From: Sphingobacteriales bacterium
GTDB taxonomy: Bacteria > Bacteroidota > Bacteroidia > Cytophagales > 172606-1
NCBI GenBank assembly: GCA_031424975.1
Contig: JANPIL010000141.1
Span: 7,293-71,292, forward strand
Length of the DNA stretch: 64,000 nucleotides
Direction: 5' to 3'
A program made the position numbers and the translations under genes. Of this stretch, positions 10,713 through 27,902 are shown one piece after another. Under the pieces are notes generated by a model, which did not search any database, was not told where the DNA came from, and saw nothing but the letters and a program-made list of their open reading frames with translations. How positions within the stretch are numbered: the first letter of the stretch is position 1; each line of letters opens with the position of its first letter.

Positions 10713-10741
10713 GGTTTCGTATTTTGAAAGGATACTATTCT
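10713..10741 (-). repeat. Motif A copy
   Basis: GGTTTCGTATTTTGAAAGGATACTATTCT. Confidence 0.85.
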
Positions 10742-10788
10742 TGCAGGAAGTACGCAGATTGCTTGGTTGGCACTTAATTGCCAATTAC

Positions 10789-10970: not shown

Positions 10971-11121
10971 GAAAAACTTATGATTTCTTTTGCTTTTAAG
11001 CATTCTACTATTTCTACTGTATGATGTTGACTATGGTGAATAGTATTTATATAAAATTCTAATCCTGAACTGTCTGGCCGTAGTGTCCGCTACGACCAGA
11101 CCCAGCCGAGTAACTGTAGTG

Positions 11122-11307
11122 TTATACCTTTCGGTATAACGTACCAATGACAAGTAAAATAAAGCCAATTAGTAACATTTCATAGTTATACTTTGACAAT
11201 ACATCTATGTGCGTGTAATGTCCCAAAATGCCTAAAAAGCCGACGATGAGGGCAAGAACCCAGACTATTTGGTTGGGTGCACTGGGCATAAATTTTTTGT
11301 TTGCCAT
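11122..11307 (-). CDS. Small two-transmembrane membrane protein
   Basis: 61 aa with two hydrophobic segments; AT-rich. Confidence 0.6.
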   Translation of the reverse strand: MANKKFMPSAPNQIVWVLALIVGFLGILGHYTHIDVLSKYNYEMLLIGFILLVIGTLYRKV

Positions 11308-11511
11308 GGTTATTTGATTTAATTAAGGTTAAATTATTCTTTATATGAACCGTTTATTGAGTAACAATGACTCCCTTCAAAAGTAGGTCTATTTGAATTC
11401 TCAATCAAGGTAGATTTGTTCCAAACTTTGAGTTAACCAAATTTCTTCTATGGAGCTGCTATACACTGATAATCAACAGATTGTGTATTTTTCCAATAAA
11501 GCCGAACCCAG

Positions 11512-11540
11512 AAAACAGTATCTTTTCAAAACGCAAAATC
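11512..11540 (+). repeat. Motif A copy
   Basis: AAAACAGTATCTTTTCAAAACGCAAAATC. Confidence 0.75.
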
Positions 11541-11643
11541 CCTTTTTGTCAAAACAAACAGAGAACGTGCATTGCACGGATGAGAATGCAGTTTAAACAA
11601 GTTTTTAACTAACTGATTATCAACCGATAACAACTCTAAGGAC

Positions 11644-11839
11644 TGCTAACGCGCAGGGCTTTGCGCAGGTGTGGAATTAGAATTGCGTCTGCCCGGAACC
11701 GATGCCGGTTGAAAAAATAAAGTTAAAGTCAAGTGAAAAAATTCACTGATGTACGTCAAGCCCGAACAAAAGCTGAATAGAATTACAAATGCTCATTGTT
11801 ATTCCGTCTGCCCAACTTGCACAAAACCCCATGTTAGTG
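11644..11839 (-). other. attC-like recombination site (array 1)
   Basis: TGCTAAC...GTTAGTG ends; complementary arms GGGCTTTGCGCAGGTGTGG / CCCAACTTGCACAAAACCCC; stop codon overlap. Confidence 0.7.
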
Positions 11840-12493
11840 GCTGGCTCTGTGTTTTCGCATCGCATTATGTATGTCATTAATTAGTTTTTCAATTTTTGTC
11901 AATGAGTATTTACAAAATTCGCTGTCAATTTGTATGTTAAAATTTTCCTCGTCATATTCTGTTAATTCTATCGGACTATACTTTTGACAAATCTTTATTG
12001 TATCTATTGTCGATTTTGATAAGATTCCATCAGAATGCACAAATACATTCCGTATCTTATTAAAATCATTTACTTCTGTCCAAGTTTCAGACTCAAATGG
12101 CTCTATAATGTTACATACTTTTTTCAAATACAAGCTACTTCTAAATATTCCACTCCCACTAATATCTTTCAGAGTTAATTTATAAGAGTTTGATTTTTTT
12201 AAATTTTTACATATTTGGTCAAGTGAATTTTCAAGTAGAAAGTAGGTACTCAAAAATATTGATTTCCATAGTATCATAGGAAAAATTCCTTCATATTGAA
12301 TTTTCTTGCCAAATCTTTCGTCAATTACATCTTCATCAGTACTGCTTTCCATTGCAGTAATTTTTGTCTTTAAAAATACTTCTGTTTCACTTATTAAATC
12401 TTCATAATGTTTCAACTCATCATATACTCCGTGATTGAAGAAAAAATGATAAGTATAAGTGTCTTCTTCTTGTTTTTTTAAATCTTCGTCCAT
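11834..12493 (-). CDS. Hypothetical protein (cassette ORF, array 1)
   Basis: 219-aa AT-rich ORF; its TAA stop overlaps the end of the attC-like site. Confidence 0.75.
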   Translation of the reverse strand: MDEDLKKQEEDTYTYHFFFNHGVYDELKHYEDLISETEVFLKTKITAMESSTDEDVIDERFGKKIQYEGIFPMILWKSIFLSTYFLLENSLDQICKNLKKSNSYKLTLKDISGSGIFRSSLYLKKVCNIIEPFESETWTEVNDFNKIRNVFVHSDGILSKSTIDTIKICQKYSPIELTEYDEENFNIQIDSEFCKYSLTKIEKLINDIHNAMRKHRASH

Positions 12494-12519
12494 TTTTTAA
12501 AAGGTCTGTTTGAGCTTAC

Positions 12520-12716
12520 CACTAACGATCGAGTATTGCTGCAGTTGGGGAATTGACCAACTATCTGCCCGGTACTGAAGCTAAATTAATAACTAAAAGC
12601 CGAAGTTAAGAACTAATGATCGGTAGAATTCCGTCCGCCGGATATAAAGCTTGGATATGCACTGCTGCTGATTGTACTTCCGTCAAACCCCAATTGCAGC
12701 AATACTTTTGTTGGCA
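12520..12716 (-). other. attC-like recombination site (array 1)
   Basis: CACTAAC...GTTGGCA; arms AGTATTGCTGCAGTTGGGG / CCCCAATTGCAGCAATACT. Confidence 0.72.
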
Positions 12717-12725
12717 GCCGTATTT

Positions 12726-13529
12726 TTAGTCAATGAATACTTTGCGATGTCTCATGTCATGTTTAAATATTTCATCGGATTTCATTGTCTTACCCTTATA
12801 AATGTTTGAAGGTTTACACTTGTCGCAATTAATCACTCTATATACTAAGTTGTAGCCTTTGTGTTTTTTATTCTTTCCAACTACAACTCCTTTAATTATA
12901 CAGTCATAAGTTATGTAGTCAGTGAAAGCTGAATAAGAAAACAAAGTAGCACTATCAGTTCCGTCATGTCTGGATTGTTCTTTGAATGGGATTTTGATGG
13001 TGTCGCCTATATTCACTTTCTCAAAAATTTGTTTGAGTTCAGCTTCTTTTTTTATCATTTGCCGTTTTACCTCGTCAAAATATAGTTTGTCTGGCTCAAA
13101 CTCATTTGAATAACAAGTTATTTCCTTAGAAAATAGTCCTTTGTTATATGCTTGCAAATGAAGTTCTGGCAACTTATTAAATTGCTTTAATCGCTGTCTG
13201 TCAATTTTTTTTGGTGACATGAAGTCATAAGTTCCAGCGTACAGCATAATAATTTCAAGTGTATCGCATTTTTTTTGCAATTTGATTTTTGTCCGCTCAA
13301 ACCCAACCCAAGTAAAAAATAGAATTTGTATTTGTTGCGGTACTTCAATTTTAAATCTGCCGTTTAAATCTGTCCTGCCAAACAAAATTGTGTCTTTGTT
13401 TTGAATGTGGACGTCAGGTAGCGGCTCTAAGTCTTGTGAAATAACTCTTCCCCGAATAGTTCGGGTTTGTCCACACAGAATTGTGTCAAACAAAAGTAAA
13501 GTCGCTATAAAAATGACTGTAAGTTTCAC
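12726..13529 (-). CDS. Carboxypeptidase-regulatory-like domain protein (cassette ORF, array 1)
   Basis: Signal peptide, TIRGRVISQDLEPLP..TDLNGRF..FTWVGFE; GTG start 13529 just downstream of the attI-like GTT. Confidence 0.7.
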   Translation of the reverse strand: MKLTVIFIATLLLFDTILCGQTRTIRGRVISQDLEPLPDVHIQNKDTILFGRTDLNGRFKIEVPQQIQILFFTWVGFERTKIKLQKKCDTLEIIMLYAGTYDFMSPKKIDRQRLKQFNKLPELHLQAYNKGLFSKEITCYSNEFEPDKLYFDEVKRQMIKKEAELKQIFEKVNIGDTIKIPFKEQSRHDGTDSATLFSYSAFTDYITYDCIIKGVVVGKNKKHKGYNLVYRVINCDKCKPSNIYKGKTMKSDEIFKHDMRHRKVFID

Positions 13530-13543
13530 ATTAATATGTCTGC

Positions 13544-13567
13544 CAACTCTCAAATAGACGCAAGTTT
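13544..13567 (-). other. attI-like array head (array 1)
   Basis: CAACTCTCAAATAGACGCAAGTTT, identical to 26394-26417; on the - strand it ends in GTTG. Confidence 0.65.
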
Positions 13568-13920
13568 TGCGCCTCATCGCAATGTTAGTGAAAGGGGCTG
13601 AAGATACCAAAATACGGTGTCCATTTTTCCATAACCGTTTTACAATCAGTTGGATAAGCCCTTACGATTACTGCCAGGTTAAGTTGAACAATACAAAATG
13701 CGCATTGAGTACTAGACGGTGTTTATCGTTTTCGGCAATACAAAATACGCATTGCGGCAATGACACTATTTTGCCTGTCAGCAATACAATATGCGCAATA
13801 ATGCGTGCCGTCATTTCAGAGTGTCCAGCGGGCTTTTCGTATTCTTCAAATTCCTTTGGCTCACGCATATCTAATGCATCTTTCAAGAATAACCCCAAAA
13901 CCCCCGCCGACACCAGCAGG

Positions 13921-13949
13921 GGTTTTGTGTTTTCGAAACATACTATTTT
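13921..13949 (-). repeat. Motif A copy
   Basis: GGTTTTGTGTTTTCGAAACATACTATTTT. Confidence 0.88.
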
Positions 13950-14030
13950 CCAAGGATGGTTTTGGGGTAGGCTGGCAATATGGAAAACGGGGACGTAATT
14001 TATGCCTGCCGCCATATTGCCAAACCAATG

Positions 14031-14939
14031 TCAGTGATGGCTTTTTATTTTATCTCCAATATAGTTCAAAGCCTCACCGTAAGTTTCAATTCCGTGTCCC
14101 ACATTGTTGAATACTTTTATTTCTTTCAAAAACCTTAAATGTTGTTTTGCATTTTCAATGGATTTTTGAAATGGAAAGAGCAAATCCTTGTCACCTTCGA
14201 TAAGGTAGGTTTCGGCTTTTACATCTGAGAGTTGCTTGTCCATGTAATATGGCTTTTGTGTCCTGTCCTTGTAGCGGCTTATTGCAAACACCTCATAGTC
14301 AACAAGCATTTTTTCCGAAAACACAGATAGCTTGTGATGGGGTTTTGAAAAAACGGCTTTATCCAAAAATTTCAACACATTCTTTTCCGTCGGGCTTACA
14401 ATGGGCAGCAAATTGAAATAAAGGTTTTTGAGTGTCATCGAAAAAGGTTGCAAACAGCCAGGATTCAGCAAAAAAGCCGACTTTATTTTTTCAGGCTTCA
14501 CTATTCCAAGTTTCATGCAGATGAGACCGCCAAATGAAGCTCCTGCAACAAATGCTTTTTCGATATTCAATTTGTCAAAAACTTCTGCCGCCCAAAAACC
14601 ATAGTCCAACGATTTGATTTCCGGGGTTGCCCCATCACTCAGATTGGGAAGGCCATTTGTTTCCACCATGAAGATTTTCATCTTATGGTTCAGGTTGTCA
14701 AGCCCTTTGTCAAAATCCCAAATCAAAGAGGTTGTTCTTGCACCCGGAAAAATCACCAATGTCTCAAGATGTTCCTCCTTTGTGTTGAGACCCCAGACAT
14801 GGGTGTTTCCAAGTGAAGTTTTTATTTCATAACGTTCATATTGCCTCCCGTTATTTTTCTCCAATTGTCTTACCCAACTTTCAAAATGCTCGAAGTCGGC
14901 CTTTTCATCTTTAAAACATGATTCTTTTTTTATTTCCAT
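14031..14939 (-). CDS. Alpha/beta hydrolase
   Basis: GASFGG nucleophile elbow, GDKD, GHG; lower GC. Confidence 0.85.
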   Translation of the reverse strand: MEIKKESCFKDEKADFEHFESWVRQLEKNNGRQYERYEIKTSLGNTHVWGLNTKEEHLETLVIFPGARTTSLIWDFDKGLDNLNHKMKIFMVETNGLPNLSDGATPEIKSLDYGFWAAEVFDKLNIEKAFVAGASFGGLICMKLGIVKPEKIKSAFLLNPGCLQPFSMTLKNLYFNLLPIVSPTEKNVLKFLDKAVFSKPHHKLSVFSEKMLVDYEVFAISRYKDRTQKPYYMDKQLSDVKAETYLIEGDKDLLFPFQKSIENAKQHLRFLKEIKVFNNVGHGIETYGEALNYIGDKIKSHH

Positions 14940-15019
14940 CGTCTTTCATGTTGGCGTTTTTTTGAAACACCCGCCTTTTTACAGTACCAGCCGTGCTTTT
15001 TGCTCGTTTGCCGGCAGGG

Positions 15020-15048
15020 GGTTTGGCCTTTTTGAAACATACTATTTT
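15020..15048 (-). repeat. Motif A copy overlapping the treS stop codon
   Basis: GGTTTGGCCTTTTTGAAACATACTATTTT. Confidence 0.9.
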
Positions 15049-18000
15049 GCCGCGTACTCGTCCATGATGTATTTGATGCCGCGAATCGGGATCACCACCC
15101 AGTCGGGGCGCATATTCAGCTCGTAGTTGAGTTCGTAAATCGCTTTTTCAAGGATGAAGATTTGCAGCATCAGGTCAACATCTTCCAAGGTGTCGGGCAG
15201 GAAATCCTGGCCGTTGGCGGTTTCCAGGTACGATTGCATGAAAAAGCCCGACACGTAGTGGAACCACTGCTCGGCCCACGTTTGCAGGTAGGCCACATCT
15301 TCGCGGCGCATTTTTTCGTCCTGAATCAGTTGGTAGAACGCCGCGTAGTGAAACGACCGGATCATGCCCGCCACGTCGCGCAGGGCGGAGCGTTTCAGGC
15401 GGCGTTCACTGAACGAACGTATTGGCTCGCCTTCGAAGTCAATGATGATGAAATCCTCGCCCGTAAACAGCACCTGGCCCAAGTGGTAGTCGCCGTGGTT
15501 GCGAATCTTGTTGGTGTTGAACTTGTGGCTGTACACGCGCTGCATGAATTTCAGGATGGCGGGCCGCATACCCAGCACTTCTTCGGCTTCGGCCCGCACC
15601 GATTCGGGCAGCGTGGACAGCTTTTTCTTCAGCAAATCAAACGAGCCGCGCACCTGCGCCACCAGCGACGAATACAGCGAACGCTGGTAGTGCAGCGAAT
15701 AGGCTTCCGGCTCAAAGCCTTTTTCCTCAGGATGCGAGGCAAGTGCCAAGTGCATTTCGGCGGTGCGCTGGCCCAGCAGCCGCACCCGCTCCACGTACGC
15801 GCCCCCGAGCAGTTGCTGCATTATTTCGGGAATCTGCTCGAACGTGACCGGCTTAGTGAGCATCCCCATGGGCGGCAGCACGTTTAAATGGCGGTTTTCG
15901 GTCAGTTTGCGGTCGAAGAACCGGCGCAGCACATCACCGAAGTACGTCCAGGCATCGCCTTGGTTAGGCACCAGTTCCTGCATCATGCCCAGCACCATGG
16001 GGTCGTGTTTGGCCTGCTGGTATTCAAGCGAACCGGCAAACTTGGGCACGTGCCTGAAATTGGTCTGCTCGGTCAGGAAGCGGGTTATTTCCAAATCGGG
16101 GTTGTAGGCGCGGTCCAGTTTGCGGTAAATCTTGAAGAAATACTTGTCGTCGAAAACCGCCGAGGTGTTGCTCTGCTCGGCATTCAATATCTTGGATTTC
16201 ACTACCTGCTTTTTGGTTCCACGCAGGGCTTTTTCCACGTCTTTGGTCACGTAGGCGTTCAGGTCGCCATCGCCCACGCGCATCTTGCGTTTCTGTGTCA
16301 TCAATGCGTACAGCACGTTGCGGAACTCTTCGCTGTACACGGCATCGTAGAGTATGCCTTTTTTGCCACCCACCAGCACCGGCACAATGATTGCCTTCGG
16401 GCTTTCGTCGCGGATTTTCCGTTCCTCGTCGCCAAAAGCCAGTGCCACCGGCAGCGAATACATTTCGGGCAGGCCTTCGTTATAGTTCACTTCCAGCACA
16501 AAAAACGCCGACTCGCTGCTCACCGTCGGGATGGTGATGTTTTCCACGACTTGCACCGTCTGGATTGTGCGGGCTTTGCCGCCAAACCAACGGCAACTGA
16601 GCAGGTAGGACGGGAATACCTTGTTTTCCAAGAACCGGATTTTCTTGGCTTCCGACAGTTCATCCCAATCCGAAAGTTCCAAGGCGGGCAGTTGGCTGTT
16701 GTCCCTTGCCGAAGCCGCCACCTCCACTTTTTTCAGTGCCAGCCAATAATAGCTGTGCGCGGTCAGCGTGAACAGGTAATCGTGATCCTTGATGGGGGGG
16801 AATGCGTTGTGGCTGAACACTTCAACGGGTTCGTAGCCCCGGTAAGCCGATAGGTCCAGTTCAACCGCCTGCGGGAAACGCGACAGGTTGGCCACCACCA
16901 GCATAGTCTCGCCTTCATAGGAACGGATGAAGGCCAGCACTTTTGAGTTGGTAGGGTTCAGGAAATGGATGTCGCCCCGGCTGAATGCCTTGTAACGCTT
17001 GCGCATATCAATGATGCGCTTGGTCCACCAGAGCAGCGAATTTTGGTTTTTCTGCTGGTTTTCCACGTTTACCGACCCGTACATATATTCCGGGTCGCTC
17101 ACTACGGGCAGGTACAGTTGCTGCGGGTTGGCCTTGGAGAAACCGGCATTGCGGTCGTCGTTCCATTGCATGGGAGTCCGCACACCGTCACGATCCTTGA
17201 GGAAATAATTGTCGCCCATACCGATTTCATCGCCATAATACACCACCGGTGTGCCGGGCAGCGAAAATAGCAGCACGTTCATCAGTTCTATCTTACGGCG
17301 GTTGTTGTCCATGAGCGGAGCCAGCCGGTGCCGGATGCCGAGGTTTATCTTGGCCTGCGGGTCTTTGGCATACACCTTATACATGTAGTCGCGTTCCTCG
17401 TCGGTCACCATTTCCAGCGTCAATTCGTCGTGGTTGCGCAAAAATACCGCCCACTGGCACGCATCGGGAATGGAAGGTGTCTGCTCAATGATGTTCATGA
17501 TCGGGTAGCGGTCTTCCATTTTCACCGACATGTACATCCTCGGCATAATCGGGAAGTTGTAGTTCATGTGGCATTCGTCGCCGTTGCCAAAGTAGCTTGC
17601 CGAATCTTCGGGCCACATATTGGCTTCGGCCAGAAACATCCGGCCCGGATAATTCTTGTCCATGTGGGCGCGCATTTTCTTCAAAAATGCGTGCGTTTCG
17701 GGCAGGTTCTCGCAGTTAGTGCCGTCGCGTTCAAACAAATAGGGCACGGCATCCACCCGGAAACCGTCCACACCCATGTCCATCCAATAGTCGAAAATCT
17801 TGAAAACCTCTTCTTGCACCTTCGGACTGTCGTAGTTCAGGTCGGGTTGGTGGTGGAAAAACCGGTGCCAGTAGTAGGCCTTCGCCACCGGATCCCAGGT
17901 CCAGTTGGAGGTTTCGGTGTCGGTGAAAATGATGCGTACGTCCTCGTATTTCTTGTCCGTGTCGCTCCACACGTAAAAATCGCGATTGACCGAGCCCTCC

Positions 18001-18380
18001 GGTGCCCGCCTGGCCCGCTGGAACCATGGGTGCTGGTCGGAGGTGTGGTTCAGCACCAGTTCGGTAATCACGCGCAGGCCCCGGCGTTTGGCTTCCTTCA
18101 TGAAATTCTTAAAATCCTGGATGTTGCCGTACGTCGGGTTGATGGTGTAGTAGTCGGCAATGTCGTAGCCATCATCGCGCAGCGGCGACGGATAAAATGG
18201 CAGCAGCCAGATTGCCGTCACGCCCAGTTCTTCGAGGTAGTCCAGTTTCTGGATCAGGCCCTTGAAGTCGCCGATGCCATCGCCGTTGCTGTCGGCAAAC
18301 GCCTTGATGTGCAGTTCGTAAATGATTGCGTCCTTGTACCAGCGCAAGTTGTCGTCTTGGGGAAGTGTGTTCGTTGCCAT
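15042..18380 (-). CDS. treS: Trehalose synthase fused to maltokinase (TreS-Mak)
   Basis: WYKDAIIYE, SPLRDDGYD, GFRVDAV, FLRNHDELTLE; C-terminal kinase IRNHGDYHLGQVL..IIDFEGEP. Confidence 0.95.
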   Translation of the reverse strand: MATNTLPQDDNLRWYKDAIIYELHIKAFADSNGDGIGDFKGLIQKLDYLEELGVTAIWLLPFYPSPLRDDGYDIADYYTINPTYGNIQDFKNFMKEAKRRGLRVITELVLNHTSDQHPWFQRARRAPEGSVNRDFYVWSDTDKKYEDVRIIFTDTETSNWTWDPVAKAYYWHRFFHHQPDLNYDSPKVQEEVFKIFDYWMDMGVDGFRVDAVPYLFERDGTNCENLPETHAFLKKMRAHMDKNYPGRMFLAEANMWPEDSASYFGNGDECHMNYNFPIMPRMYMSVKMEDRYPIMNIIEQTPSIPDACQWAVFLRNHDELTLEMVTDEERDYMYKVYAKDPQAKINLGIRHRLAPLMDNNRRKIELMNVLLFSLPGTPVVYYGDEIGMGDNYFLKDRDGVRTPMQWNDDRNAGFSKANPQQLYLPVVSDPEYMYGSVNVENQQKNQNSLLWWTKRIIDMRKRYKAFSRGDIHFLNPTNSKVLAFIRSYEGETMLVVANLSRFPQAVELDLSAYRGYEPVEVFSHNAFPPIKDHDYLFTLTAHSYYWLALKKVEVAASARDNSQLPALELSDWDELSEAKKIRFLENKVFPSYLLSCRWFGGKARTIQTVQVVENITIPTVSSESAFFVLEVNYNEGLPEMYSLPVALAFGDEERKIRDESPKAIIVPVLVGGKKGILYDAVYSEEFRNVLYALMTQKRKMRVGDGDLNAYVTKDVEKALRGTKKQVVKSKILNAEQSNTSAVFDDKYFFKIYRKLDRAYNPDLEITRFLTEQTNFRHVPKFAGSLEYQQAKHDPMVLGMMQELVPNQGDAWTYFGDVLRRFFDRKLTENRHLNVLPPMGMLTKPVTFEQIPEIMQQLLGGAYVERVRLLGQRTAEMHLALASHPEEKGFEPEAYSLHYQRSLYSSLVAQVRGSFDLLKKKLSTLPESVRAEAEEVLGMRPAILKFMQRVYSHKFNTNKIRNHGDYHLGQVLFTGEDFIIIDFEGEPIRSFSERRLKRSALRDVAGMIRSFHYAAFYQLIQDEKMRREDVAYLQTWAEQWFHYVSGFFMQSYLETANGQDFLPDTLEDVDLMLQIFILEKAIYELNYELNMRPDWVVIPIRGIKYIMDEYAAK

Positions 18381-18403
18381 TGTATTGGTGAGGTGAGTAA
18401 CCG

Positions 18404-18432
18404 GGTTTGGGTGTTTTGAAAGATACTATTTT
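18404..18432 (-). repeat. Motif A copy
   Basis: GGTTTGGGTGTTTTGAAAGATACTATTTT. Confidence 0.92.
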
Positions 18433-18764
18433 GTGAAAATGCCGAATAGCTTTTTCGGTTTACGATTGGATTTTGTCTCCTTGTACTGTTTGTATTTTCC
18501 AAGGTCTTTCCACGCTTCACTGTACATTGCAACACGGTTTTTGGCAGCATCAATGTAATGACCGCCCAATCCGTGAAGTGTGTTCAGTAAGGACTTGAAA
18601 AAATAATCGTCTTTTTAATCTATTCTTTTCCATCGCGCATTTTTCGTGACCCTTGTTTTTCTGATAGTTTTTTACTGCTTTTTTGCAATCCAAATCTCAA
18701 TAGATTCCAATCTTTAACGTTGGATTCAGAAGATGTTCTCTTGTTGGCAAGTTTTGCATATCAG

Positions 18765-19046
18765 TTAATTGCTTTGCACGAATATTGAATTCTCCAATTC
18801 ATCTTTGAAATACACTGTGTATCCTCTAACTGTCCCGTTCTTTTGGAGTCCAAAGTTGACACATATCCAAGCAGATTTCACACAATTACACGCAGAAAGC
18901 GAACAGGAATCCTCCAAAGATGATTTCACATCAAAAAAAACGTCAACCTTACCGGCTTTTGATAGATTTCCGTTAGGGTCAACGCCCTTATGAAACCATT
19001 TTTTTATTTCCACGAAATTTGATTTGGACACCTGTTTATCCATCAT
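18765..19046 (-). CDS. Hypothetical protein in an AT-rich islet
   Basis: 93-aa ORF only; may be a fragment. Confidence 0.4.
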   Translation of the reverse strand: MMDKQVSKSNFVEIKKWFHKGVDPNGNLSKAGKVDVFFDVKSSLEDSCSLSACNCVKSAWICVNFGLQKNGTVRGYTVYFKDELENSIFVQSN

Positions 19047-19107
19047 CGGATACGAGAAAAGTGTTATTCGCTTTTCATCAAGTGCGATTTAAAAAACACA
19101 TTGAAAA

Positions 19108-19136
19108 CAAATAGTATCTTTTGAAAACACCAAACC
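19108..19136 (+). repeat. Motif A copy
   Basis: CAAATAGTATCTTTTGAAAACACCAAACC. Confidence 0.9.
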
Positions 19137-19195
19137 CCTTTTGTCATTCAGACAAAGGAGGAATGACAAAAAAGAGCAATAAAAACGCTCCGTCC

Positions 19196-19224
19196 AAAAT
19201 AGTATCTTTCAAAAAGCCCAAACC
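19196..19224 (+). repeat. Motif A copy
   Basis: AAAATAGTATCTTTCAAAAAGCCCAAACC. Confidence 0.92.
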
Positions 19225-19239
19225 TGCCAACTGTCAATC

Positions 19240-19265
19240 GGGCAACCGCAAGGGTTGCCCCCTAC
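19240..19265 (+). repeat. REP-like hairpin GGGCAACCGCAAGGGTTGCCC-CCTAC
   Basis: Stem GGGCAACC/GGTTGCCC. Confidence 0.7.
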
Positions 19266-19313
19266 GGTTTCTGTCTGTGGACTGCCGACCGTCGTCTGTG
19301 GACTAAAAACAAC

Positions 19314-21266
19314 TCACTCCACCCGGAACACGTGGGCGGGCATGATGTCGGGGTGCAACTCCACGTAGTTCCATTCGTGGTGCCATTGGTAGCGGCTGTC
19401 GGTCATCAGGTCGTGCATGGTGTAGGCCGAGCCGGAAGCCATGTTCAGGTATTGCGTGGGCACTTTTATCCAGCCTGACTGCACGTGGTGCGGATCGAGG
19501 TTCACCACCACCAGTATCTTGTTACTGCGCATATCGTCCATTTTGGCGTAGCAGAGCAGTTGCTGGTTGTCGGTTTCGCCAAACTCAATGTTCCAAGTGG
19601 TTTGCAGGGCCGCATTTTCGCGCCTGATCCGGTTGATGCGCGTCATGGTGTCGCGGATTTTGGTACGCCGGCTCCAGTCCCACACGTGCGGCTCGTATTT
19701 TTCCGAATCCAGATATTCCTCCTTGCCGGGAGCCATCGGCGAGTTGATGCCGAATTCATACACCGGGCCGTACAAACCGTAGTTGGACGACAGTGTGGCC
19801 GCCAGAATCAACCGGCTCACGTGTGCTGACTCGCCGCCCTGCTGCAATATTTCGGGCAGGATATCGGGCGTGTTGGGCCAGAAATTAGGGCGGTAATACT
19901 CGCGCATTTCTGTTTTGGTCAGCTCGGTCATGTACTGCTTCAGTTCGGCTTGCGTGTTGCGCCACGTAAAGTAGGTGTACGACTGGTTGAAGCCAATCTT
20001 GGCAAGCTGCTCCATTACGCGCGGACGGGTAAAGGCTTCGGCGAGAAAAATAACGTCGGGGTTTTTGGTGCGGATTTCGCGGATGCACCATTCCCAAAAG
20101 CCAAAAGCCTTGGTGTGCGGGTTGTCCACCCTGAATATCAGTACGCCCAGTCCGATCCAGTATTCCAACACCCGTTTCAGTTCCAGCCACAGGTTTTGCC
20201 AGTCTTCAGTCTCGAAATTTACGGGCAGCACATCCTGGTATTTCTTGGGCGGATTTTCGGCGTATTGCACCGAGCCATCGGGCCGCCACCGGAACCACTG
20301 CGGGTGCTGCTTCACGTACGGATGGTCGGGTGAACACTGGATGGCGTAGTCAATGGCAACCTCAATGTCCAATTGATTGGCCGCCTTGATAAAACTTTTG
20401 AAATCCTCCACCGTGCCCAAATCCGGGTGGATGGCATCGTGGCCGCCTTCCGCGCCGCCAATGGCCCACGGCGAGCCGTGTTCGCCGGGCTGGGCAGTCA
20501 CGGCGTTGTTGGCTCCCTTGCGGTTGCTCACGCCAACCGGATGGATGGGCGGCAGGTAAACCGTGTCGAAACCCATCTCGGCAATGCGCGGCAAAATGCG
20601 TTCTGCATCCTTGAATGTACCGTGTTTGCCCGCCTCAGAAGCCGTGGAACGCGGAAAAAACTCGTACCAAGTGCTGAACAACGCCTTTTTGCGTTCCACT
20701 TCCATTTTCAAAACGCTGTGGTACAGGCTGGCGCAACTTTTGTCGGGATAGGCTTCCACCAATCTGGTCAGTTCCATGCCCAAACCCAGCGACACCCCGG
20801 CGGCTTGGTCGGTTTCGGCACGCAGTTGCGCCACCCACGCCTGCAATTGCTGGGCATCTTTGCCTTTGGCGGCATTGGCGGCGGCTTCCACCCAGTTGGC
20901 CCCAATCAGCAGTTCCACGGCCACATCCTGTTTGGCCTCGAATTTCTTTTTTAATCCTTTCTGCCACGTCAGCAAATGATCCACCCAGCCTTGCACCGTG
21001 TATTCGTAAATGCCACGCCGGTCGGGCGTGCACGAAACCTCCCAACGGTCGTTGCCCAAGAAAACCATCGGCACTTCCGTCCAAGTGGCGGCTTGGGCGT
21101 GCCTGACCAGCAAAACGGCCCGCACTTCGTCGTGCCCGTCGGTGAAAACATCGGCGGTGACGGTCAGTTTCTCACCCACCGTGCGTTTGACCGGATAACG
21201 TCCGCTGTTGATTTGCGGGTTCACGTGTTCAATGACCACGCGGTTTCTGCCATCTGTATTCGTCAT
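19314..21266 (-). CDS. glgE: Alpha-1,4-glucan:maltose-1-phosphate maltosyltransferase
   Basis: STWYEFFPRS, YAENPPKKYQD, FRVDNPHTK, NFWPNTPDIL. Confidence 0.95.
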   Translation of the reverse strand: MTNTDGRNRVVIEHVNPQINSGRYPVKRTVGEKLTVTADVFTDGHDEVRAVLLVRHAQAATWTEVPMVFLGNDRWEVSCTPDRRGIYEYTVQGWVDHLLTWQKGLKKKFEAKQDVAVELLIGANWVEAAANAAKGKDAQQLQAWVAQLRAETDQAAGVSLGLGMELTRLVEAYPDKSCASLYHSVLKMEVERKKALFSTWYEFFPRSTASEAGKHGTFKDAERILPRIAEMGFDTVYLPPIHPVGVSNRKGANNAVTAQPGEHGSPWAIGGAEGGHDAIHPDLGTVEDFKSFIKAANQLDIEVAIDYAIQCSPDHPYVKQHPQWFRWRPDGSVQYAENPPKKYQDVLPVNFETEDWQNLWLELKRVLEYWIGLGVLIFRVDNPHTKAFGFWEWCIREIRTKNPDVIFLAEAFTRPRVMEQLAKIGFNQSYTYFTWRNTQAELKQYMTELTKTEMREYYRPNFWPNTPDILPEILQQGGESAHVSRLILAATLSSNYGLYGPVYEFGINSPMAPGKEEYLDSEKYEPHVWDWSRRTKIRDTMTRINRIRRENAALQTTWNIEFGETDNQQLLCYAKMDDMRSNKILVVVNLDPHHVQSGWIKVPTQYLNMASGSAYTMHDLMTDSRYQWHHEWNYVELHPDIMPAHVFRVE

Positions 21267-21327
21267 AAATGATTGCGTTTGTCGGGTTCCGAAACGGTTT
21301 TGGTGTGAAATATCAAATCAGGATTCA

Positions 21328-21356
21328 AAAATAGTATCCCCGGAAAAGGCCAAACC
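21328..21356 (+). repeat. Motif A copy
   Basis: AAAATAGTATCCCCGGAAAAGGCCAAACC. Confidence 0.88.
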
Positions 21357-21568
21357 CGCCGGGTTTAAAAATGCTCCCAGCCATCCATTGGCCGCTAAAA
21401 ATAGCGGATAAAACGGAGCGAAAAACACGCACAAACGAAAAACCGCAAATGCCGCCACCCCGTTGCCGCAATGGCGGCGCACATTGGTTCCAAAGTGAGT
21501 GCATGCCGCTGAAAAATCCAATTTTTTCTTTAATTTTATCAATCCAAAATATGGTTTTTAAATCGCCC

Positions 21569-24277
21569 ATGAAAAAGACTTTTACCCTTTTGCCGCCCAC
21601 CGGGGTTTGGGCCTTCCTGCTGATACTATTTTCCGGCGGCTTTGCCGGGGCGCAGCACGCATTTCCCACCGGCTTTGCCGAAACCCGCATCACCGGCGGC
21701 CTCAACCCGACGGCCATGGCGTTTTCGCCGGATGGACGGCTTTTCATCTGCGACAAAAGCGGCAGGATACACATTGTGCGCAACGATGAGTTTCTTACCA
21801 CGCCATTTGTGGTGCTGCCCAACGTGGACGACTTCAATGAGCGGGGTTTGGGGGGCATTGCCTTCGACCCGGACTTTGCCAACAACGGCTATGTGTACCT
21901 GTATTACGCGGTCAAGGATGCGAACCACAACCGCATTGTGCGCCTTAAAGCCAGCGGCGATGCGGCGGTTCCCGGTTCGGAAGAGATTCTGGTGGAACTG
22001 GAACCCATGGCGGGCACCATCCACAACGGCGGCGCAATGGCGTTCGGCCCGGACGGCAAACTCTACGTTTCCATCGGCGATGGTGCCAACTCCGGCAGTG
22101 CGCAGTCCATGGACAGCAAATTGGGCAAGTTCCTGCGCATCAACGCCGACGGCTCCATCCCCACCGACAATCCGTTTTACAACTCCGCCACCGGCACCAA
22201 CCGCGCCATCTGGGCGTTGGGTTTCCGCAATTCGTTCACGTTTGCCATCCAGCCCGGCACCGGACGCATTTTTGCTAATGATGTGGGCGGCAGCTTGTCT
22301 GAGGAAATCAACGAGGTGGTGAAAGGCGGCAACTACGGCTGGAACCAGATAGAAGGCCCAAAACCCGCCAATACCGCCCCGCCCGCCAACTACCGCGACC
22401 CGGTGTATGCCTACGACCACGGCTTGGGCTGCTCGATTATCGGCGCGGCATTCTGCGATGCGGCCACCAATCGGTTTCCGGCCATTTACGCGGGCAAATA
22501 TTTCTTTGCGGATTATTGCAACGGCTACATCAAGGTGCTGAATCCGGCCAACGGACAGATTGAAAGCACGTTTGCGACGGGCATCAACCGCCCGGTGGAT
22601 TTTGAGTTTGCCAAGGATGGCTCGCTGTACTACCTCGAACGGGCGGGCATGGGCGGCGGCTCCATGCAAGACAACACCAGTACCAACAACGGCGCACTCT
22701 GGAAACTTACCTACACGGGCAGCGGCGCACCGGGCATGTCGCAGCAGCCCGCTTCCGTATTGGTTTCGGCGGGCGACAGCGCGGTGTTTTTTGTGGCGGC
22801 TTCGGGCAGCCGTCCGTTGACTTTTCAATGGCAGCGCGATGGCAACAACATTGCCGGAGCCACGCAAAGCAGCCATACTTTCAAAAATGCGGCACTGGCC
22901 GATAACAACGCCCAACTGCGCTGCGTGGTCACCAACGCCTTCGGCTCGGCTGCCAGCCACGCCGCCGCCCTGCAAGTAACCGCCGACAAACGGCCCGTGC
23001 CCACAATTACCACGCCGCTGGCCGGAGCCACCTACCGCGCTGGCGACACGCTGGCCTTTGCCGGAACCGTCCTTGACAACGAGGATGGAAACCTACCCGA
23101 CTCGGCGTACACGTGGTGGGTTGATTTCCACCACGACAGCCACGCGCACCCCGGACTTTCGCCTGTGAAAGGCATCCGGGCGGGGCAATTTGCGGTGCCG
23201 CGCTTCGGCGAGATTTCCGATAATGTCTGGTATCGGATTCATTTGCGAGCCATTGATAGCAAAGGACTCTCCCAAACGACTTTCACGGATGTGTATCCGC
23301 AAAAAACAACCCTGAAACTGGAAACTGAACCGGCGGGCATCGGCATCAACCTGGATGGCGAAATGCGTATTGCGCCCTACGAATTCAACAGCGTCAAAGG
23401 CATCACCCGAATTGTAGAGGCTCCGGTTTCGTATGCAAAAAACAATAACCTCTACGTATTCAAACAATGGAGTGGCGGCGCGGCTGGCCGTATCCTGACA
23501 TTTGCCACGCCCGATGTGCCAACCACCTACCGGGCTATTTTTGATGTGGTGCCGCTGGGCACAGGCAGCGGTCTGACGGGCAAGTATTACGACAATGGCC
23601 GACGCAACTTCACCGTACCGGTCACGGTGAAACGACTCGATGCCAATATTGACTTTACGTGGGGCAATAATTCGCCCGACCCGAAAATCAAACCCGACAA
23701 TTTCACCGCTTCGTGGAGCGGGCTGGTGCAGCCACTGTTTTCGGAAGAGTACACGTTTTACGCCACCGCCGACGATGGCGTGCGGCTTTGGGTGGACAAC
23801 AAACTGCTCGTGGACAAGTGGCAGTTGCAGGCGGCCACCGAATGGCAGGGCACGGTGACGCTTGAGGCGGGCAAAAAATACGAGTTGCGGCTGGACTACT
23901 TCGAGGAACTGTACGATGCGGTGGTAAAACTGGCATGGAGCAGCCGCCGCACGCCCAAACAAATCATTCCGGCCACGCAACTGTATCCGCTGGAGTTTGT
24001 GACCGCCACCGAACCACTTGTGGCAGCGGGCGGTTTCACGCTGTACCCGGTTCCCGCTGGTGATATTCTGAAAGTGAAAATAGTATCTTTGAAAACGGCC
24101 AAAGCCGACGTGTCGGTGTATAACACGCTGGGGCAGAAGCTATTGCAAACGCCGCAAAGCCTGAGAGCCGGTGAAAACACGTTTGAGATCAACACGCAAA
24201 ACCTCGCGCCGGGAATGTATCTCATAACCGTCAGCGGCCCAAGCGGCCCGCAAAGCAAGGCTTTCGTCAAGCGGTGA
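21569..24277 (+). CDS. PQQ-dependent sugar dehydrogenase-like beta-propeller plus Ig-like, PA14 and T9SS C-terminal domains
   Basis: ERGLGGIAFDPDF, HNGG..FGPDGKLY, ALGFRN; PA14 WSGLVQP..DDGVRLWVD; C-terminal LYPVPA..GMYLI. Confidence 0.85.
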   Translation: MKKTFTLLPPTGVWAFLLILFSGGFAGAQHAFPTGFAETRITGGLNPTAMAFSPDGRLFICDKSGRIHIVRNDEFLTTPFVVLPNVDDFNERGLGGIAFDPDFANNGYVYLYYAVKDANHNRIVRLKASGDAAVPGSEEILVELEPMAGTIHNGGAMAFGPDGKLYVSIGDGANSGSAQSMDSKLGKFLRINADGSIPTDNPFYNSATGTNRAIWALGFRNSFTFAIQPGTGRIFANDVGGSLSEEINEVVKGGNYGWNQIEGPKPANTAPPANYRDPVYAYDHGLGCSIIGAAFCDAATNRFPAIYAGKYFFADYCNGYIKVLNPANGQIESTFATGINRPVDFEFAKDGSLYYLERAGMGGGSMQDNTSTNNGALWKLTYTGSGAPGMSQQPASVLVSAGDSAVFFVAASGSRPLTFQWQRDGNNIAGATQSSHTFKNAALADNNAQLRCVVTNAFGSAASHAAALQVTADKRPVPTITTPLAGATYRAGDTLAFAGTVLDNEDGNLPDSAYTWWVDFHHDSHAHPGLSPVKGIRAGQFAVPRFGEISDNVWYRIHLRAIDSKGLSQTTFTDVYPQKTTLKLETEPAGIGINLDGEMRIAPYEFNSVKGITRIVEAPVSYAKNNNLYVFKQWSGGAAGRILTFATPDVPTTYRAIFDVVPLGTGSGLTGKYYDNGRRNFTVPVTVKRLDANIDFTWGNNSPDPKIKPDNFTASWSGLVQPLFSEEYTFYATADDGVRLWVDNKLLVDKWQLQAATEWQGTVTLEAGKKYELRLDYFEELYDAVVKLAWSSRRTPKQIIPATQLYPLEFVTATEPLVAAGGFTLYPVPAGDILKVKIVSLKTAKADVSVYNTLGQKLLQTPQSLRAGENTFEINTQNLAPGMYLITVSGPSGPQSKAFVKR
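21604..21632 (-). repeat. Motif A copy in a signal-peptide coding region
   Basis: GGTTTGGGCCTTCCTGCTGATACTATTTT; encodes GVWAFLLILFS. Confidence 0.8.
24077..24105 (+). repeat. Motif A copy in the T9SS C-terminal domain coding region
   Basis: AAAATAGTATCTTTGAAAACGGCCAAAGC; encodes KIVSLKTAKA. Confidence 0.85.
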
Positions 24278-24519
24278 AGCCTATTGGGTTTCTATTGCCC
24301 CGGTACGGTGATACCAAGGGCTTCTTTATTAGAGTTGATTTTGTCCTGCCGCAAAAACGTCTGACCGTGCTGGATATTTACCAACCAAATCTTTTGAAGG
24401 GGATGCAAGCAATAGAATTTCATGAGGCGTTTTGTAGTTTTTGTCAAGCCTCATGAAAGTTGTATTTTGATTGCTAAATTCCGTTTTTTAAGCTGTAACG
24501 TCGTCATTTGTAACCTGAC

Positions 24520-24652
24520 CGCTAACGGTTTAGAGGGTTTGCGATGGCGGGGAGTTTTAGCACTAAACTTCATTCGGAGAACCAAACTTCCACTTTGCAC
24601 AAAAGTGTCTGCGAAGCACGCAACCCCCGCTACTGAAAACCCCTTGTTAGTG
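24520..24652 (-). other. attC-like recombination site (array 2)
   Basis: CGCTAAC...GTTAGTG; arms GGGTTTGCGATGGCGGGG / CCCCGCTACTGAAAACCC; stop codon overlap. Confidence 0.7.
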
Positions 24653-25450
24653 GTTCGTTGTTTCATTGTCATCCATTTCACGTTTATATTCTTCTTTATA
24701 TTCACCGTGTTCGTCAAATTTACTTTGAAATTGTCGGTAGCTAATAAAACCGATAAACGGCTTAGAATGATTGTCACCAAGTGTTAATCTCAATTTCGTT
24801 TTGTAATTACCCTTAAAAATTGGAGCTAATGTCAGGATGCACTCATTTGGAGGGAGAATAAATGAGCCCACGCCATTACCACACTTATAAATAAACCTTT
24901 CTTGTATCGGTTTCCAATTTCCTAAAGTGTCCACTGCTTCCATTACAATAGGAACGTGGCTACCATAACCGATGAAAATAGTGTCAGTGTCCCGATTTGT
25001 TAGTATTACTGGATATAAGTTGGCTAATTTAATTGCTGTGTCAAGCTGAATTTCAATTTTAGATTGTGTCCAGTTTCTATAACTCCTTTCCTCGTCCCAT
25101 TCTATATAGTATTTTTTAAAGGAATTTTCAAGTTCAGTTATTTTTGTCCTATTACTCGTCTTTGCTCCTGAAGGCAAAGGTGGCGGAGGAGGAGGTGAGA
25201 AGTTAGTAAAAGGACTTAAATAAATGGTGTCTTTAACTTCTCCAATAAAGTAAAAATTGTAATTTGAAGTTGTTAGCCAATTAGGGTTTTCATCTTCAAA
25301 AAAATGCAAAAACTTGTCTACGCCAAAAGTGTCAAGCACCAAGGGAAAAGGTTGTAAATTGTCAGCCTCTTTTGCTGCTTCCTTTTTGTCAGTCTGACAA
25401 CCGATTAAAAAAAGTGTAGTCAGAAGAAATATTAGTTGAATTTGTCTCAT
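24647..25450 (-). CDS. Hypothetical lipoprotein (cassette ORF, array 2)
   Basis: Lipobox LIGC; AT-rich; TAA stop overlaps the attC-like end. Confidence 0.75.
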   Translation of the reverse strand: MRQIQLIFLLTTLFLIGCQTDKKEAAKEADNLQPFPLVLDTFGVDKFLHFFEDENPNWLTTSNYNFYFIGEVKDTIYLSPFTNFSPPPPPPLPSGAKTSNRTKITELENSFKKYYIEWDEERSYRNWTQSKIEIQLDTAIKLANLYPVILTNRDTDTIFIGYGSHVPIVMEAVDTLGNWKPIQERFIYKCGNGVGSFILPPNECILTLAPIFKGNYKTKLRLTLGDNHSKPFIGFISYRQFQSKFDEHGEYKEEYKREMDDNETTNH

Positions 25451-25472
25451 TTGTTGTCGTCTTTACAATGAC

Positions 25473-25670
25473 CGCTAACGGCTACGGCTTGGCGATGTGG
25501 CGGTATTTGAAAATCGTCAGCCTGTAACTGCTGTTGAATAAAGTTACAAAAAATGATGATTAAGAACTACAGCTCGGCGTTATTCGTCGGCTGGAACTGA
25601 AGCCGATTAGCGAACAAAAAGTTGAGAATATATTCGTCGCCCCGCCATATTGCCAAACCGAATGTTGCCT
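25473..25670 (-). other. attC-like recombination site (array 2)
   Basis: CGCTAAC...GTTGCCT; arms CGGCTTGGCGATGTGGCGG / CCGCCATATTGCCAAACCG. Confidence 0.72.
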
Positions 25671-25696
25671 GCTGGCGTTTTTCGTTAGCTTTTGAG

Positions 25697-26053
25697 TTAT
25701 TTTTTCCATTCTTTTATGCTGTAAGAGTCAATGATAGAGTCCTTTGTCAATTTTAATTGTAAAGACTTGGTGTAAACTGGGTCAATGTCAAAGCCATAAT
25801 CTGTTTCAATTTCGTAATAAACAATGTCGTTTTCTTTGTCGCTATAGTTTTCTGGTTCGCCAATTAAGTTTACTAATTGTCTGTAAGAAAGACCTGTTAG
25901 TTTATAATTCTTGGTCAAATCTTTCAGCATAGATTTTCTATGTGTGTAAATTCTCAAGTCGCCCTGTTCTTGCCATTTCGTTTTGTCAAACTTTTCATTA
26001 GAGTTACAAGATGTAAGAAAGATGCTAACTAAAAAAGTTATAAATACCTTCAT
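25697..26053 (-). CDS. Hypothetical lipoprotein (cassette ORF, array 2)
   Basis: Lipobox LTSC; 118 aa; AT-rich. Confidence 0.75.
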   Translation of the reverse strand: MKVFITFLVSIFLTSCNSNEKFDKTKWQEQGDLRIYTHRKSMLKDLTKNYKLTGLSYRQLVNLIGEPENYSDKENDIVYYEIETDYGFDIDPVYTKSLQLKLTKDSIIDSYSIKEWKK

Positions 26054-26349
26054 AATTTAGATTCCTTCTTTTTGTTAAACGAATAAATTCTTTCTGCAAC
26101 AAGTCCATAAAACAGGCAATTTAGAAATAGTCCAACAAAAAACATTGAGCCATTCATAAACTGAAAAAATAAAGTGTGTGTCGGAAAACGAAAGATGTAA
26201 AATAGTTTTTCAAGGGCTTTCACAATTATTCCATCGCCACCTGTTCCTTCATCTCTTGCTGCTGCTGCAACTAATGTTACAAAAGTCAAAATGCCACAAA
26301 TTATTGTCGTAATAAAGAATGTTTTGAAGTTGAATTTTGGAATTTTCAT
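26050..26349 (-). CDS. Small membrane protein (cassette ORF, array 2)
   Basis: Two transmembrane segments; ATGA overlap with the next gene; start at ATG 26349 downstream of the attI-like GTT. Confidence 0.65.
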   Translation of the reverse strand: MKIPKFNFKTFFITTIICGILTFVTLVAAAARDEGTGGDGIIVKALEKLFYIFRFPTHTLFFQFMNGSMFFVGLFLNCLFYGLVAERIYSFNKKKESKL

Positions 26350-26393
26350 TGCCTGTCTAAATGCAAATTGTGGTGTCGCACTACGCTTGCAGG

Positions 26394-26417
26394 CAACTCT
26401 CAAATAGACGCAAGTTT
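26394..26417 (-). other. attI-like array head (array 2)
   Basis: CAACTCTCAAATAGACGCAAGTTT, identical to 13544-13567. Confidence 0.65.
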
Positions 26418-26675
26418 ACGCTAGAACGTAAACATGTGTGCATTTTCAGGAAAATCAAAGTTTTTCCTGAAAATTCCGTACAAGTGTCTGATATTCAGAC
26501 TATTGCATTTATTGCCTGTATTCGTTGACCCATCGGCAATGCAAAATACGCTGGTTGCACTGTGCGTATTTCCATCCGGTTGGCAATACAAAATGCGTAC
26601 TTCGCAAAACGTATTGCCGTCGATGACGACAATACGTTTTGCGAAGTACGCATCAACTTGTTCAGCGGGCTTTTT

Positions 26676-27455: not shown

Positions 27456-27484
27456 AAAATAGTATGTTTTGAAAGTGCCAAACC
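27456..27484 (+). repeat. Motif A copy abutting a start codon
   Basis: AAAATAGTATGTTTTGAAAGTGCCAAACC. Confidence 0.9.
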
Positions 27485-27723
27485 CCCGGAAACGCCAAAC
27501 CCTGGTTGGCGCGGATGAATTGAAAAACGATGCGGGCTGCCTTATGCCATCGACCCGCACAGTCCGGGCATAACCACCATTTCCATGCCAAGCCAAACGG
27601 TTTTGCGCGTCCAAATATGAACTAAATCCGGCTTGCGCGGCCAGCATTTAACAACCTTTAACATTGGCCGCACCAACGGATATTTTCCCGCGCCTGCCTT
27701 CCGCTTGCAAAAATCTGTGCGGG

Positions 27724-27752
27724 GGTTTGGGGTTTTTCAGGGATACTATTTT
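27724..27752 (-). repeat. Motif A copy
   Basis: GGTTTGGGGTTTTTCAGGGATACTATTTT. Confidence 0.9.
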
Positions 27753-27841: not shown

Positions 27842-27887
27842 AAAACGCCCAAACCCACCCGTGGCTGCGGGTGGGTTTGGGCGTTTT
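27842..27887 (-). terminator. 20-bp perfect hairpin built from the Motif A arm, downstream of the TolB-like gene
   Basis: AAAACGCCCAAACCCACCCG-TGGCTG-CGGGTGGGTTTGGGCGTTTT. Confidence 0.6.
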
Positions 27888-27902
27888 AAAAGATACTATT
27901 TT
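27874..27902 (-). repeat. Motif A copy
   Basis: GGTTTGGGCGTTTTAAAAGATACTATTTT. Confidence 0.92.

Follow-up and report, generated by a model that had tools for sequence, protein, structure and literature searches.

Why should two cassette-like gene arrays that lie 13 kb apart on one contig open with the same 24 base pairs? The question is raised by a 64,000-nucleotide (nt) stretch of contig JANPIL010000141.1 (assembly GCA_031424975.1), hereafter the window, in which all coordinates below are given unless a contig or locus is named. A sequence-only reading of the window had taken the repeat for an attI-like head, the docking site of the integron, which is the textbook gene-capture device, and had proposed several capture platforms served in trans by one tyrosine recombinase. 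We examined the window, the 4.6-Mb metagenome-assembled genome (MAG; 515 contigs, 96.6% complete) to which it belongs and related genomes. In all likelihood the locus is part of a real integron-like multi-platform system of Bacteroidota, in which each 24-mer would be the attI-type head of a separate gene-cassette platform. The system does not qualify as a canonical integron, because the recombinase family found beside such heads lacks the IntI-specific extra domain. Contigs of the window genome are labelled C (C141 18069-18303, for instance, is 10777-11011 of the window) and loci of other genomes L.

Heads, cassettes and accessory boxes

On the + strand, the 24-mer CAACTCTCAAATAGACGCAAGTTT occurs in the window exactly twice, at 13544-13567 (head 1) and 26394-26417 (head 2), with 0 copies expected by chance; no further match with up to three mismatches was found in the window, nor any in 100 shuffles. 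Both arrays run on the - strand, on which the 24-mer reads AAACTTGCGTCTATTTGAGAGTTG and, with the putative crossover marked, AAACTTGCGTCTATTTGAGAG^TTG. This crossover would fall between G 13547 and the cassette-side TT at 13546-13545 in head 1, and between G 26397 and TT 26396-26395 in the identical core of head 2. The identity of the two copies stops directly after GTTG (GTTGGCAGAC versus GTTGCCTGCA), as the sequence-only reading had stated. A segmental duplication was considered as the source of the repeat and rejected: only the 24-mer and the boxes described below are common to the two regions, and the platforms belong to different sequence subfamilies.

Each head precedes, on the - strand, an array of 34-36% GC (against 55% for the adjoining treS gene), with three cassettes behind head 1 and two behind head 2, and attC-like sites lie downstream of both, in agreement with the claim that the heads start cassette arrays. 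Cassette 1 of array 1 (12526-13546) encodes a 263-amino-acid (aa) lipoprotein that contains a CarboxypepD_reg-like domain (open reading frame (ORF) from a GTG start at 13517 to 12726) and closes with an attC-like site at about 12717-12519, whose R'' box CTGCCAAC occupies 12717-12710; the next crossover is at G12526^TT. Cassette 2 (11650-12525) starts with TTAGTGG, encodes a 219-aa protein (12493-11834) and ends in an attC at about 11840-11644, the R'' box of which (CCACTAAC, 11840-11833) overlaps the stop codon. Cassette 3 (10795-11649) is decayed or composite, with a 61-aa membrane ORF (11307-11122) and an attC with a degraded 5' half (profile match 10777-11011), and the array ends at G10795^TT (CCGTTGTGCG). 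In array 2, cassette 1 (25479-26396) carries overlapping ORFs for a 102-aa membrane protein (26358-26050) and a 118-aa lipoprotein (26053-25697), followed by an attC at about 25672-25470; cassette 2 (24526-25478) encodes a 267-aa lipoprotein (25450-24647) and has its attC at 24655-24518, again with the R'' box CCACTAAC (24653-24646), the array ending at G24526^TTAGCGGTCA. A PADLOC search for defence functions among the cassettes gave one marginal match only.

The five attC-like sites of the window are imperfect inverted repeats of 140-200 nt with an xxCTAAC or xxCCAAC 5' end and a GTTAGNG 3' end. In the fold of the bottom strand of the shortest (24655-24518; z = -3.4), an internal loop separates a 10-bp R''/R' stem from a second stem, and the longer sites have similar folds with R''/R' stems. 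Bulges and internal loops separated the R and L stems in the predicted folds of five diverse sites. The attC sites would presumably react as folded single strands.

Recombination at G^TT between an attI and the attC of a circular cassette leaves the first bases of the inserted cassette able to pair with the cassette's own R'' box. Both window heads have this register, over 8-9 bases after the G: head 1 is followed by GTTGGCAG, the exact reverse complement of the cassette 1 R'' box, and head 2 by GTTGCCTGC, which in reverse complement gives the R'' box GCAGGCAAC of its first cassette (25672-25664). Cassette 2 of array 1 likewise opens with GTTAGTGG and closes with CCACTAAC. The R-box register bears the stamp of recombination between an attI and an attC at G^TT, and it upheld the proposal that the 24-mer behaves as an attI-type site with this crossover.

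The repeated boxes noted upstream of both heads also proved real. They form the direct-repeat families D4/D5, with five copies in the window, at 13687-13709, 13734-13756 and 13774-13795 in platform 1 and at 26535-26557 and 26582-26604 in platform 2. The three boxes of platform 1 (GCGCATATTGTATTG, GCGTATTTTGTATTG and GCGCATTTTGTATTG on the - strand, within 13687-13798) stand 229, 183 and 136 nt upstream of head 1. Of the 14 genome matches to the box GCRYATWYYRYATTG, 12 are found within 450 nt on the upstream side of a head, always 229, 183 or 136/134 nt away. In sequence the boxes are similar to the head's left half (CTTTCGYATTTTTGTATTG against CTTTCGYATATTT..GAGTTG), and in other Bacteroidota related boxes, variable in number and orientation, are situated between the recombinase stop codon and the head. 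The recombinase presumably binds both head and boxes. A peptide repeat was rejected, since the 46-47-nt spacing puts the three boxes in different frames and so marks them as DNA sites. Nor does the platform resemble a structured RNA: an Rfam search found nothing in the window, and the 157-nt stretch up to and including head 1 folded no better than its shuffles (z = -0.7). The boxes of platform 2 are joined, within 26535-26653 on the - strand, by a near-perfect palindrome at 26593-26653 with 29-nt arms and a 3-nt loop, made of inverted box copies; this segment is mostly missing in a sister species introduced below, which has a 44-nt gap there.

Distribution in the genome and across Bacteroidota

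Multiple platforms had been predicted for this genome, and they were found: 12 heads in a strict count (up to five mismatches to the 24-mer) and about 18 with a looser score. Homology among these copies always ends after GTT(G/A), and likewise among the type-A platforms of this genome and of the sister species (G013, MAG JAYWIH01, labelled Sphingobacteriales, same genus). A first, strict regular expression for attC 3' halves recovered 7 sites only; the sites were instead counted with our own nhmmer profile, built from the window attC sites and distinct from the IntegronFinder model, and about 40 attC-family matches on about 30 contigs were obtained. A correctly oriented attC lies downstream of 10 of the 12 strict heads, within about 2.2 kb and mostly within 1 kb, in short arrays of one to three cassettes. 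Head copies without cassettes had been named in advance as evidence that would count against a multi-platform system, and this objection therefore falls away.

The junction register was then sought in all heads flanked on either side by 1 kb or more, by taking the 8 bases from GTT and looking for their exact reverse complement up to 3 kb downstream, with the upstream side as control. This signature (GTTR plus 4-5 nt) was present at 8 of 12 heads of the window genome and at 36 of 67 heads of other genomes; the upstream control gave 0 of 12 and 2 of 67, respectively.

The degenerate head pattern AAACWTKCGYMTATTNNNNAGTTR occurs at no fewer than 118 loci in species-representative genomes. Named loci are labelled as Bacteroidota (Chitinophagaceae, Cytophagales, Flavobacteriales and Saprospiraceae) or, in two cases, as Candidatus Kapaibacterium, and one is labelled merely 'bacterium'. 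An even sample of 400 Bacteroidota species contained only eight others with the pattern (seven single-copy and one two-copy; none with the reversed-pattern control), so that the element is sparse across the phylum and 12 heads in one genome are unusual. In a logo of 115 heads the 24-bp core is conserved, essentially nothing is conserved upstream of it, and the cassette-borne GTTRnnnGnnA follows downstream.

Relatives of the 219-aa protein of array 1 cassette 2, 73-85% identical, were found in MAGs of Cytophagaceae and Saprospiraceae, preceded there by different sequences, and the similarity across families begins exactly at G^TTAGT...AGCTCA, a pattern indicating that cassettes move between lineages. 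A further homologue, 79% identical, is accompanied by three attC sites of the Bacteroidota family on contig CALRLQ020000012.1 (L145) of a MAG labelled Rhizobium sp. Q54; either this contig was mis-binned or the family also occurs in another phylum. A dense cluster was observed on the chromosome of Flavobacterium sp. SM2513 (2486567-2520861; L132/L133), where eight same-strand heads lie within 34 kb, each after a conserved 110-nt unit. Seven of the eight also come after an attC-like element, the sequence behind two of the copies is identical, and a matching recombinase is missing from the genome. Several heads are likewise present in the cultured Arcicella rosea DSM 21163, Arcicella rigui KCTC 23307 and Emticicia sp. 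SJ17W-69.

Recombinase loss and cassette turnover

Upstream of the boxes, both window platforms retain the 3' end of a recombinase gene on the - strand. In platform 1, 13811-13864 encodes VSQRNLKNTKSPLDTLK (...SPLDTLK), 17 remaining codons that match the C-termini of intact recombinases (...VSQKSLRNIKSPLDNMD* and ...IESPLDKL). In platform 2, six codons (SPLNKL, SPLDKL in the sister species) at 26654-26671 directly follow the stop of an upstream 323-aa gene. Most heads inspected in this genome, including the two of the window, have such a remnant, truncated at differing points; its length is 86 aa beside katG on C492 and 5-30 codons at other heads. The idea of purpose-built recombinase-less sites thus has to be given up: as most inspected platforms keep the last codons of their own decayed recombinase, they appear to have begun as complete units.

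No intact recombinase of the head-linked family was found in the window genome assembly (96.6% complete), and no tyrosine recombinase of any kind on the window's contig; the intact tyrosine recombinases of the genome are only an XerC-like and an XerD-like protein (C263 and C178) and two unrelated ones. With no recombinase assembled, the system is probably inactive in this genome now, and the claim that a single enzyme serves its platforms could not be demonstrated here.

Elsewhere in Bacteroidota, an intact gene for a protein of about 355-480 aa ending in ...SP(L/F)DxL is placed 115-150 nt upstream of the head and on the same strand. Heads and recombinases were counted in four genomes: Flavisolibacter has five heads and one adjacent intact gene; a Chitinophagaceae chromosome five heads with two adjacent genes and one elsewhere; Ilyomonas three heads with one intact and one truncated gene; and Flavobacterium sp. 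SM2513 15 heads and none. The proteins carry an extra N-terminal domain of about 85-125 aa, residues 1-85 of which gave a confident beta/alpha model (pLDDT >90). A Pfam search for this domain, run on 3 N-terminal segments and on 57 full-length members, gave no match even with E relaxed to 1-10, and a fold search with the whole recombinase model was dominated by the catalytic domain. Source annotations name the family only 'site-specific integrase' or 'XerD', and standard pipelines therefore miss these elements.

In the sister species, a 116-aa SSB gene (L125 3129-3479) overlaps the start of the recombinase gene at the array 1 orthologue. An SSB gene also lies between recombinase gene and head in a Cyclobacteriaceae MAG (L047), and a further SSB match was found upstream of the L059 head. 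Linkage to SSB as a general feature was rejected, being confined to these two or three loci (L125, L047 and L059), with none within 4 kb of 10 other recombinases; such neighbours are a hint of single-stranded substrates.

The window amounts to a natural experiment, since its two platforms, 13 kb apart, had lost their recombinase genes at different times, one recently and one anciently, and both can be compared with the sister species. That species has 8 strict heads, and its flanks are about 89-94% (around 92%) identical to those of the window genome. At its array 1 orthologue the order is hydrolase, SSB (116 aa, of intact length), 355-aa recombinase, boxes, head and an amidohydrolase cassette; in the window, a 1.4-kb deletion has removed the SSB and recombinase genes, and the cassettes are altogether different. 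At array 2 both species lack the recombinase and have the same boundary (TGA AAAAAGCCCGCTG...). Behind the same head the window has the 102/118-aa unit with its own matching R'', and the sister species a cassette for a 469-aa DUF4932 protein, with an R'' (TTACACCCAAC) that fits the junction at its own head (GTTGGGTGCAA). Flanks are kept and cassettes differ also at C117/L129, C508/L131 and C434/L128 (window genome/sister), and at the latter two the match between the species picks up again precisely at the GTT of the final attC. The comparison of array content across relatives therefore revealed cassette turnover between sister species, and no segmental duplication.

In all, three loci combine a recombinase-less state and a boundary common to both species with different first cassettes, and at array 2 the G^TT join with matching R'' was checked. 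Homologous replacement is unlikely because the flank identity runs right up to the 24-bp site; site-specific recombination after local loss of the recombinase would be the simplest reading of these differences. At another locus the sister species encodes one intact recombinase, in a frame of 479 aa that has the catalytic residues and precedes a variant head. At C434 (575-2280) and L128 (9358-12821), the same locus with both flanks kept, the platform subfamilies differ (one with a 60-aa recombinase remnant) as do the cassettes, and the whole unit has been exchanged or independently acquired. On C356, some 250 nt before a 280-aa lipoprotein cassette, there is a degenerate site resembling a head (TTGCGGCAATATAGGAGTTA). 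Its position is orthologous to the distal end of the array that lies downstream of the sister's only intact recombinase; the recombinase gene is missing at C356.

Taken together, a complete unit would consist, on one strand, of sometimes an SSB gene, an Xer/IntI-like tyrosine recombinase gene with the extra N-terminal domain and without the IntI insertion, 100-250 nt with boxes that are direct or inverted copies resembling the left half of the head, the 24-bp head, and the cassettes. Each cassette would be a promoterless ORF closing with a 140-200-nt imperfect hairpin site (R''...R', with R' = GTTRnnnGnnA), and would be inserted when head and cassette attC recombine, each between its G and TT. 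Both window units have lost the recombinase gene by deletion, with 17 codons left at array 1 and 6 at array 2, and the orphan heads, 12-18 in the assembled genome, would have been served in trans by a recombinase encoded elsewhere. For the lineage we consider such service in trans on balance the more probable case. The argument is indirect: shared recombinase-less platforms differ in their first cassettes between sister species, and the sister has one intact recombinase for at least eight heads. This much of the earlier proposal of service in trans stands; the part that would need a recombinase in the window genome could not be demonstrated.

The strongest rival is that the platforms are pure fossils, each having decayed independently after loss of its own recombinase and never having been served in trans, with cassette differences that predate the losses or arose by homologous recombination. 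The recombinase remnants at most inspected heads, with their differing truncation points, the lack of an intact recombinase in the assembly, the replacement of the invariant box II arginine (HGLSH) in the sister's array 1 recombinase and the shortness of the arrays all fit this account. It sits badly with the three loci whose shared recombinase-less boundary is followed by different first cassettes, joined at array 2 at G^TT with matching R'' in both species. At C508/L131 and C434/L128, moreover, 89-94% flank identity reaches the 24-bp head and resumes at the last attC GTT, leaving almost no homology for exchange, and the sister has an intact recombinase at another locus. We regard the fossil account as unlikely.

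A promoter or operator module, in which the 24-mer and the boxes would be a -7 box and regulator sites driving secreted-protein genes with no role in recombination, is very improbable. It draws on a real feature of the head, which holds a Bacteroidota -7-like (TAnnTTTG-like) element (TCTATTTG in the window, TATATTTG in the consensus and in most other genomes) and precedes the first start codon by 20-50 nt, and on the phasing of the boxes at 46-47 nt. It accounts neither for homology that ends exactly at GTT nor for post-head bases complementary to a downstream R'' box, a recombinase gene or remnant upstream on the same strand, or the head-to-last-attC replacement in the sister species. Besides its attI-type function, the head is likely to act as a promoter too, for which it would supply a -7 box of the Bacteroidota type (TATATTTG-like). 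That the platform (remnant, boxes and head) is the end of a transposon or other self-mobile element, with the boxes as subterminal transposase or arm-type sites, is hardly credible in spite of the many copies per genome (85-92% alike within a genome), the different platform types at one chromosomal locus in two species (C434/L128) and the heads repeated inside arrays in Flavobacterium sp. SM2513, given that no transposase, second end or target duplication was seen, that the left edges of copies differ and that the only enzyme consistently linked to the platform is a tyrosine recombinase.

Several observations weigh against an attI-type, multi-platform system. With no intact recombinase in the assembly, the system may be inert here; in a MAG of 515 contigs, a recombinase could also have gone unassembled and arrays could be broken across contigs. 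Among the heads of other genomes with at least 1.6 kb upstream (n = 80), 5 follow an intact gene, 8 a C-terminal remnant and 1 an N-terminal fragment, and the remaining 66 have no detectable recombinase homology upstream. The heads of Flavobacterium sp. SM2513 recur inside arrays, between gene modules, so that the head is not always an array start. Finally, most canonical attC sites are shorter than the attC-like sites found here.

The genes flanking the arrays are ordinary chromosomal ones of about 55% GC (pyrH-frr, a treS-maltokinase fusion, glgE and a dehydrogenase sorted by the type IX secretion system), and exact-protein look-ups of two of them found no other assemblies. An alpha/beta-hydrolase gene of 39% GC (14031-14939), between treS and platform 1, keeps its position in the sister species; it may have been acquired earlier in connection with the element, although no attC-like site flanks it. 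Directly 5' of start codons there is a dispersed 30-38-nt motif (AAAATAGTATCTTTnAAAAnnCCAAACCC, written in gene sense), which contains a TAnnTTTG-like element (TATCTTTG). Its copies lie at 10704-10741, 13912-13949, 15011-15048, 18395-18432, 19108-19144, 19196-19232, 21328-21364, 24077-24113, 27456-27492, 27715-27752 and 27865-27902; the copy at 21328-21364, for example, precedes an ATG at 21371, that at 18432-18395 an ATG at 18380, and one copy is upstream of array 1's deleted SSB-recombinase operon. The motif looks like the organism's consensus Bacteroidota promoter and leader.

Comparison with known systems

Xer systems resolve dimers at a single dif site and have no cassette arrays. The present recombinase has archaeal XerA (PDB 4a8e and 5hxy, 143 bits) as its closest solved structure by sequence, and accessory DNA lies beside the core site as in cer/psi. 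It differs from Xer in that the genome has separate XerC- and XerD-like genes and in its C-terminal ...SPLDxL tail, which is common to IntI4 and not to XerC or XerD. Nor do the arrays appear to be Xer/dif (pdif-type) modules, as their boundaries are 140-200-nt hairpins and a single 24-bp head rather than paired 28-bp dif-like sites.

The nearest relatives in organization are the sedentary chromosomal integrons of Treponema denticola and Chlorobium, in which the integrase is co-oriented ('inverted') with the array (IntI, attI and attC). The likeness comprises a recombinase gene beside the docking site, promoterless cassettes with an imperfect hairpin and RYYYAAC...GTTRRRY-like ends, the G^TT crossover, cassettes starting with an R' half that pairs with their own R'', and AT-rich, strain-variable arrays. 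The repeats upstream of the core recall the integrase-binding DR1/DR2 of attI1. As in a canonical integron, R''/R' stems and the GTT crossover triplet are found at cassette 3' ends (five sites in the window, about 40 in the genome), and, judging by sequence, the head has the properties of an attI, with its position after a recombinase gene or remnant, the end of homology at GTT and the R'' match.

Unlike a canonical integron, the system appears to lack the IntI-specific domain. Examined for it as the sequence-only reading had suggested, head-adjacent recombinases of other Bacteroidota scored 190-197 bits, in two pieces, on the TIGR02249 integron-integrase model, below its cut-off of 265, and in an alignment to Vibrio IntI4 (PDB 2a3v) residues 6-201 and 248-320 were matched, with no counterpart for residues 202-247, the I2 insertion of about 46 aa. 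The additional N-terminal domain, the 140-200-nt length of the attC-like sites with their extended R box GTTRnnnGnnA, and the 24-bp head, conserved across several Bacteroidota orders and present in many copies per genome, most without a recombinase, set it further apart. What remains of the earlier proposal is an integron-like system with many cassette-bearing heads, and not an integron in the strict sense.

The I2 domain is considered essential for integron recombination. We advance only tentatively, with the balance slightly against it, the fuller picture of distributed gene capture, in which a single recombinase gene, able to be lost and regained, would serve many dispersed sites that have none of their own, each with its conserved 24-bp core and phased boxes. 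The genome would then have a dozen or more small, independently placed slots in place of one large array, and the recombinase would act on folded attC without I2. A full-text literature search, which left much subscription-journal literature uncovered, returned no description of this system. A published survey found integrons almost absent from Bacteroidetes, with one complete integron, in Salinibacter ruber (PMC9024848). If the platforms work as proposed, one of the major phyla of the environment would possess a cassette pool of its own, and hairpin-cassette recombination would not need the IntI-specific domain.

Clusters of attC sites without an integron integrase (CALINs; Cury et al. 2016; IntegronFinder 2.0, PMC9024848) are regarded as integrons that have degraded. 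By their definition, at least two clustered attC and no integrase within the cluster distance, both window arrays belong here, with three attC-family matches in array 1 and two in array 2, and the recombinase remnants show degradation. They differ from CALINs in keeping an intact, conserved docking site with accessory boxes and in the turnover of first cassettes after integrase loss. Should docking sites indeed outlive their recombinase and stay in use, such 'degraded' arrays would have to be read differently.

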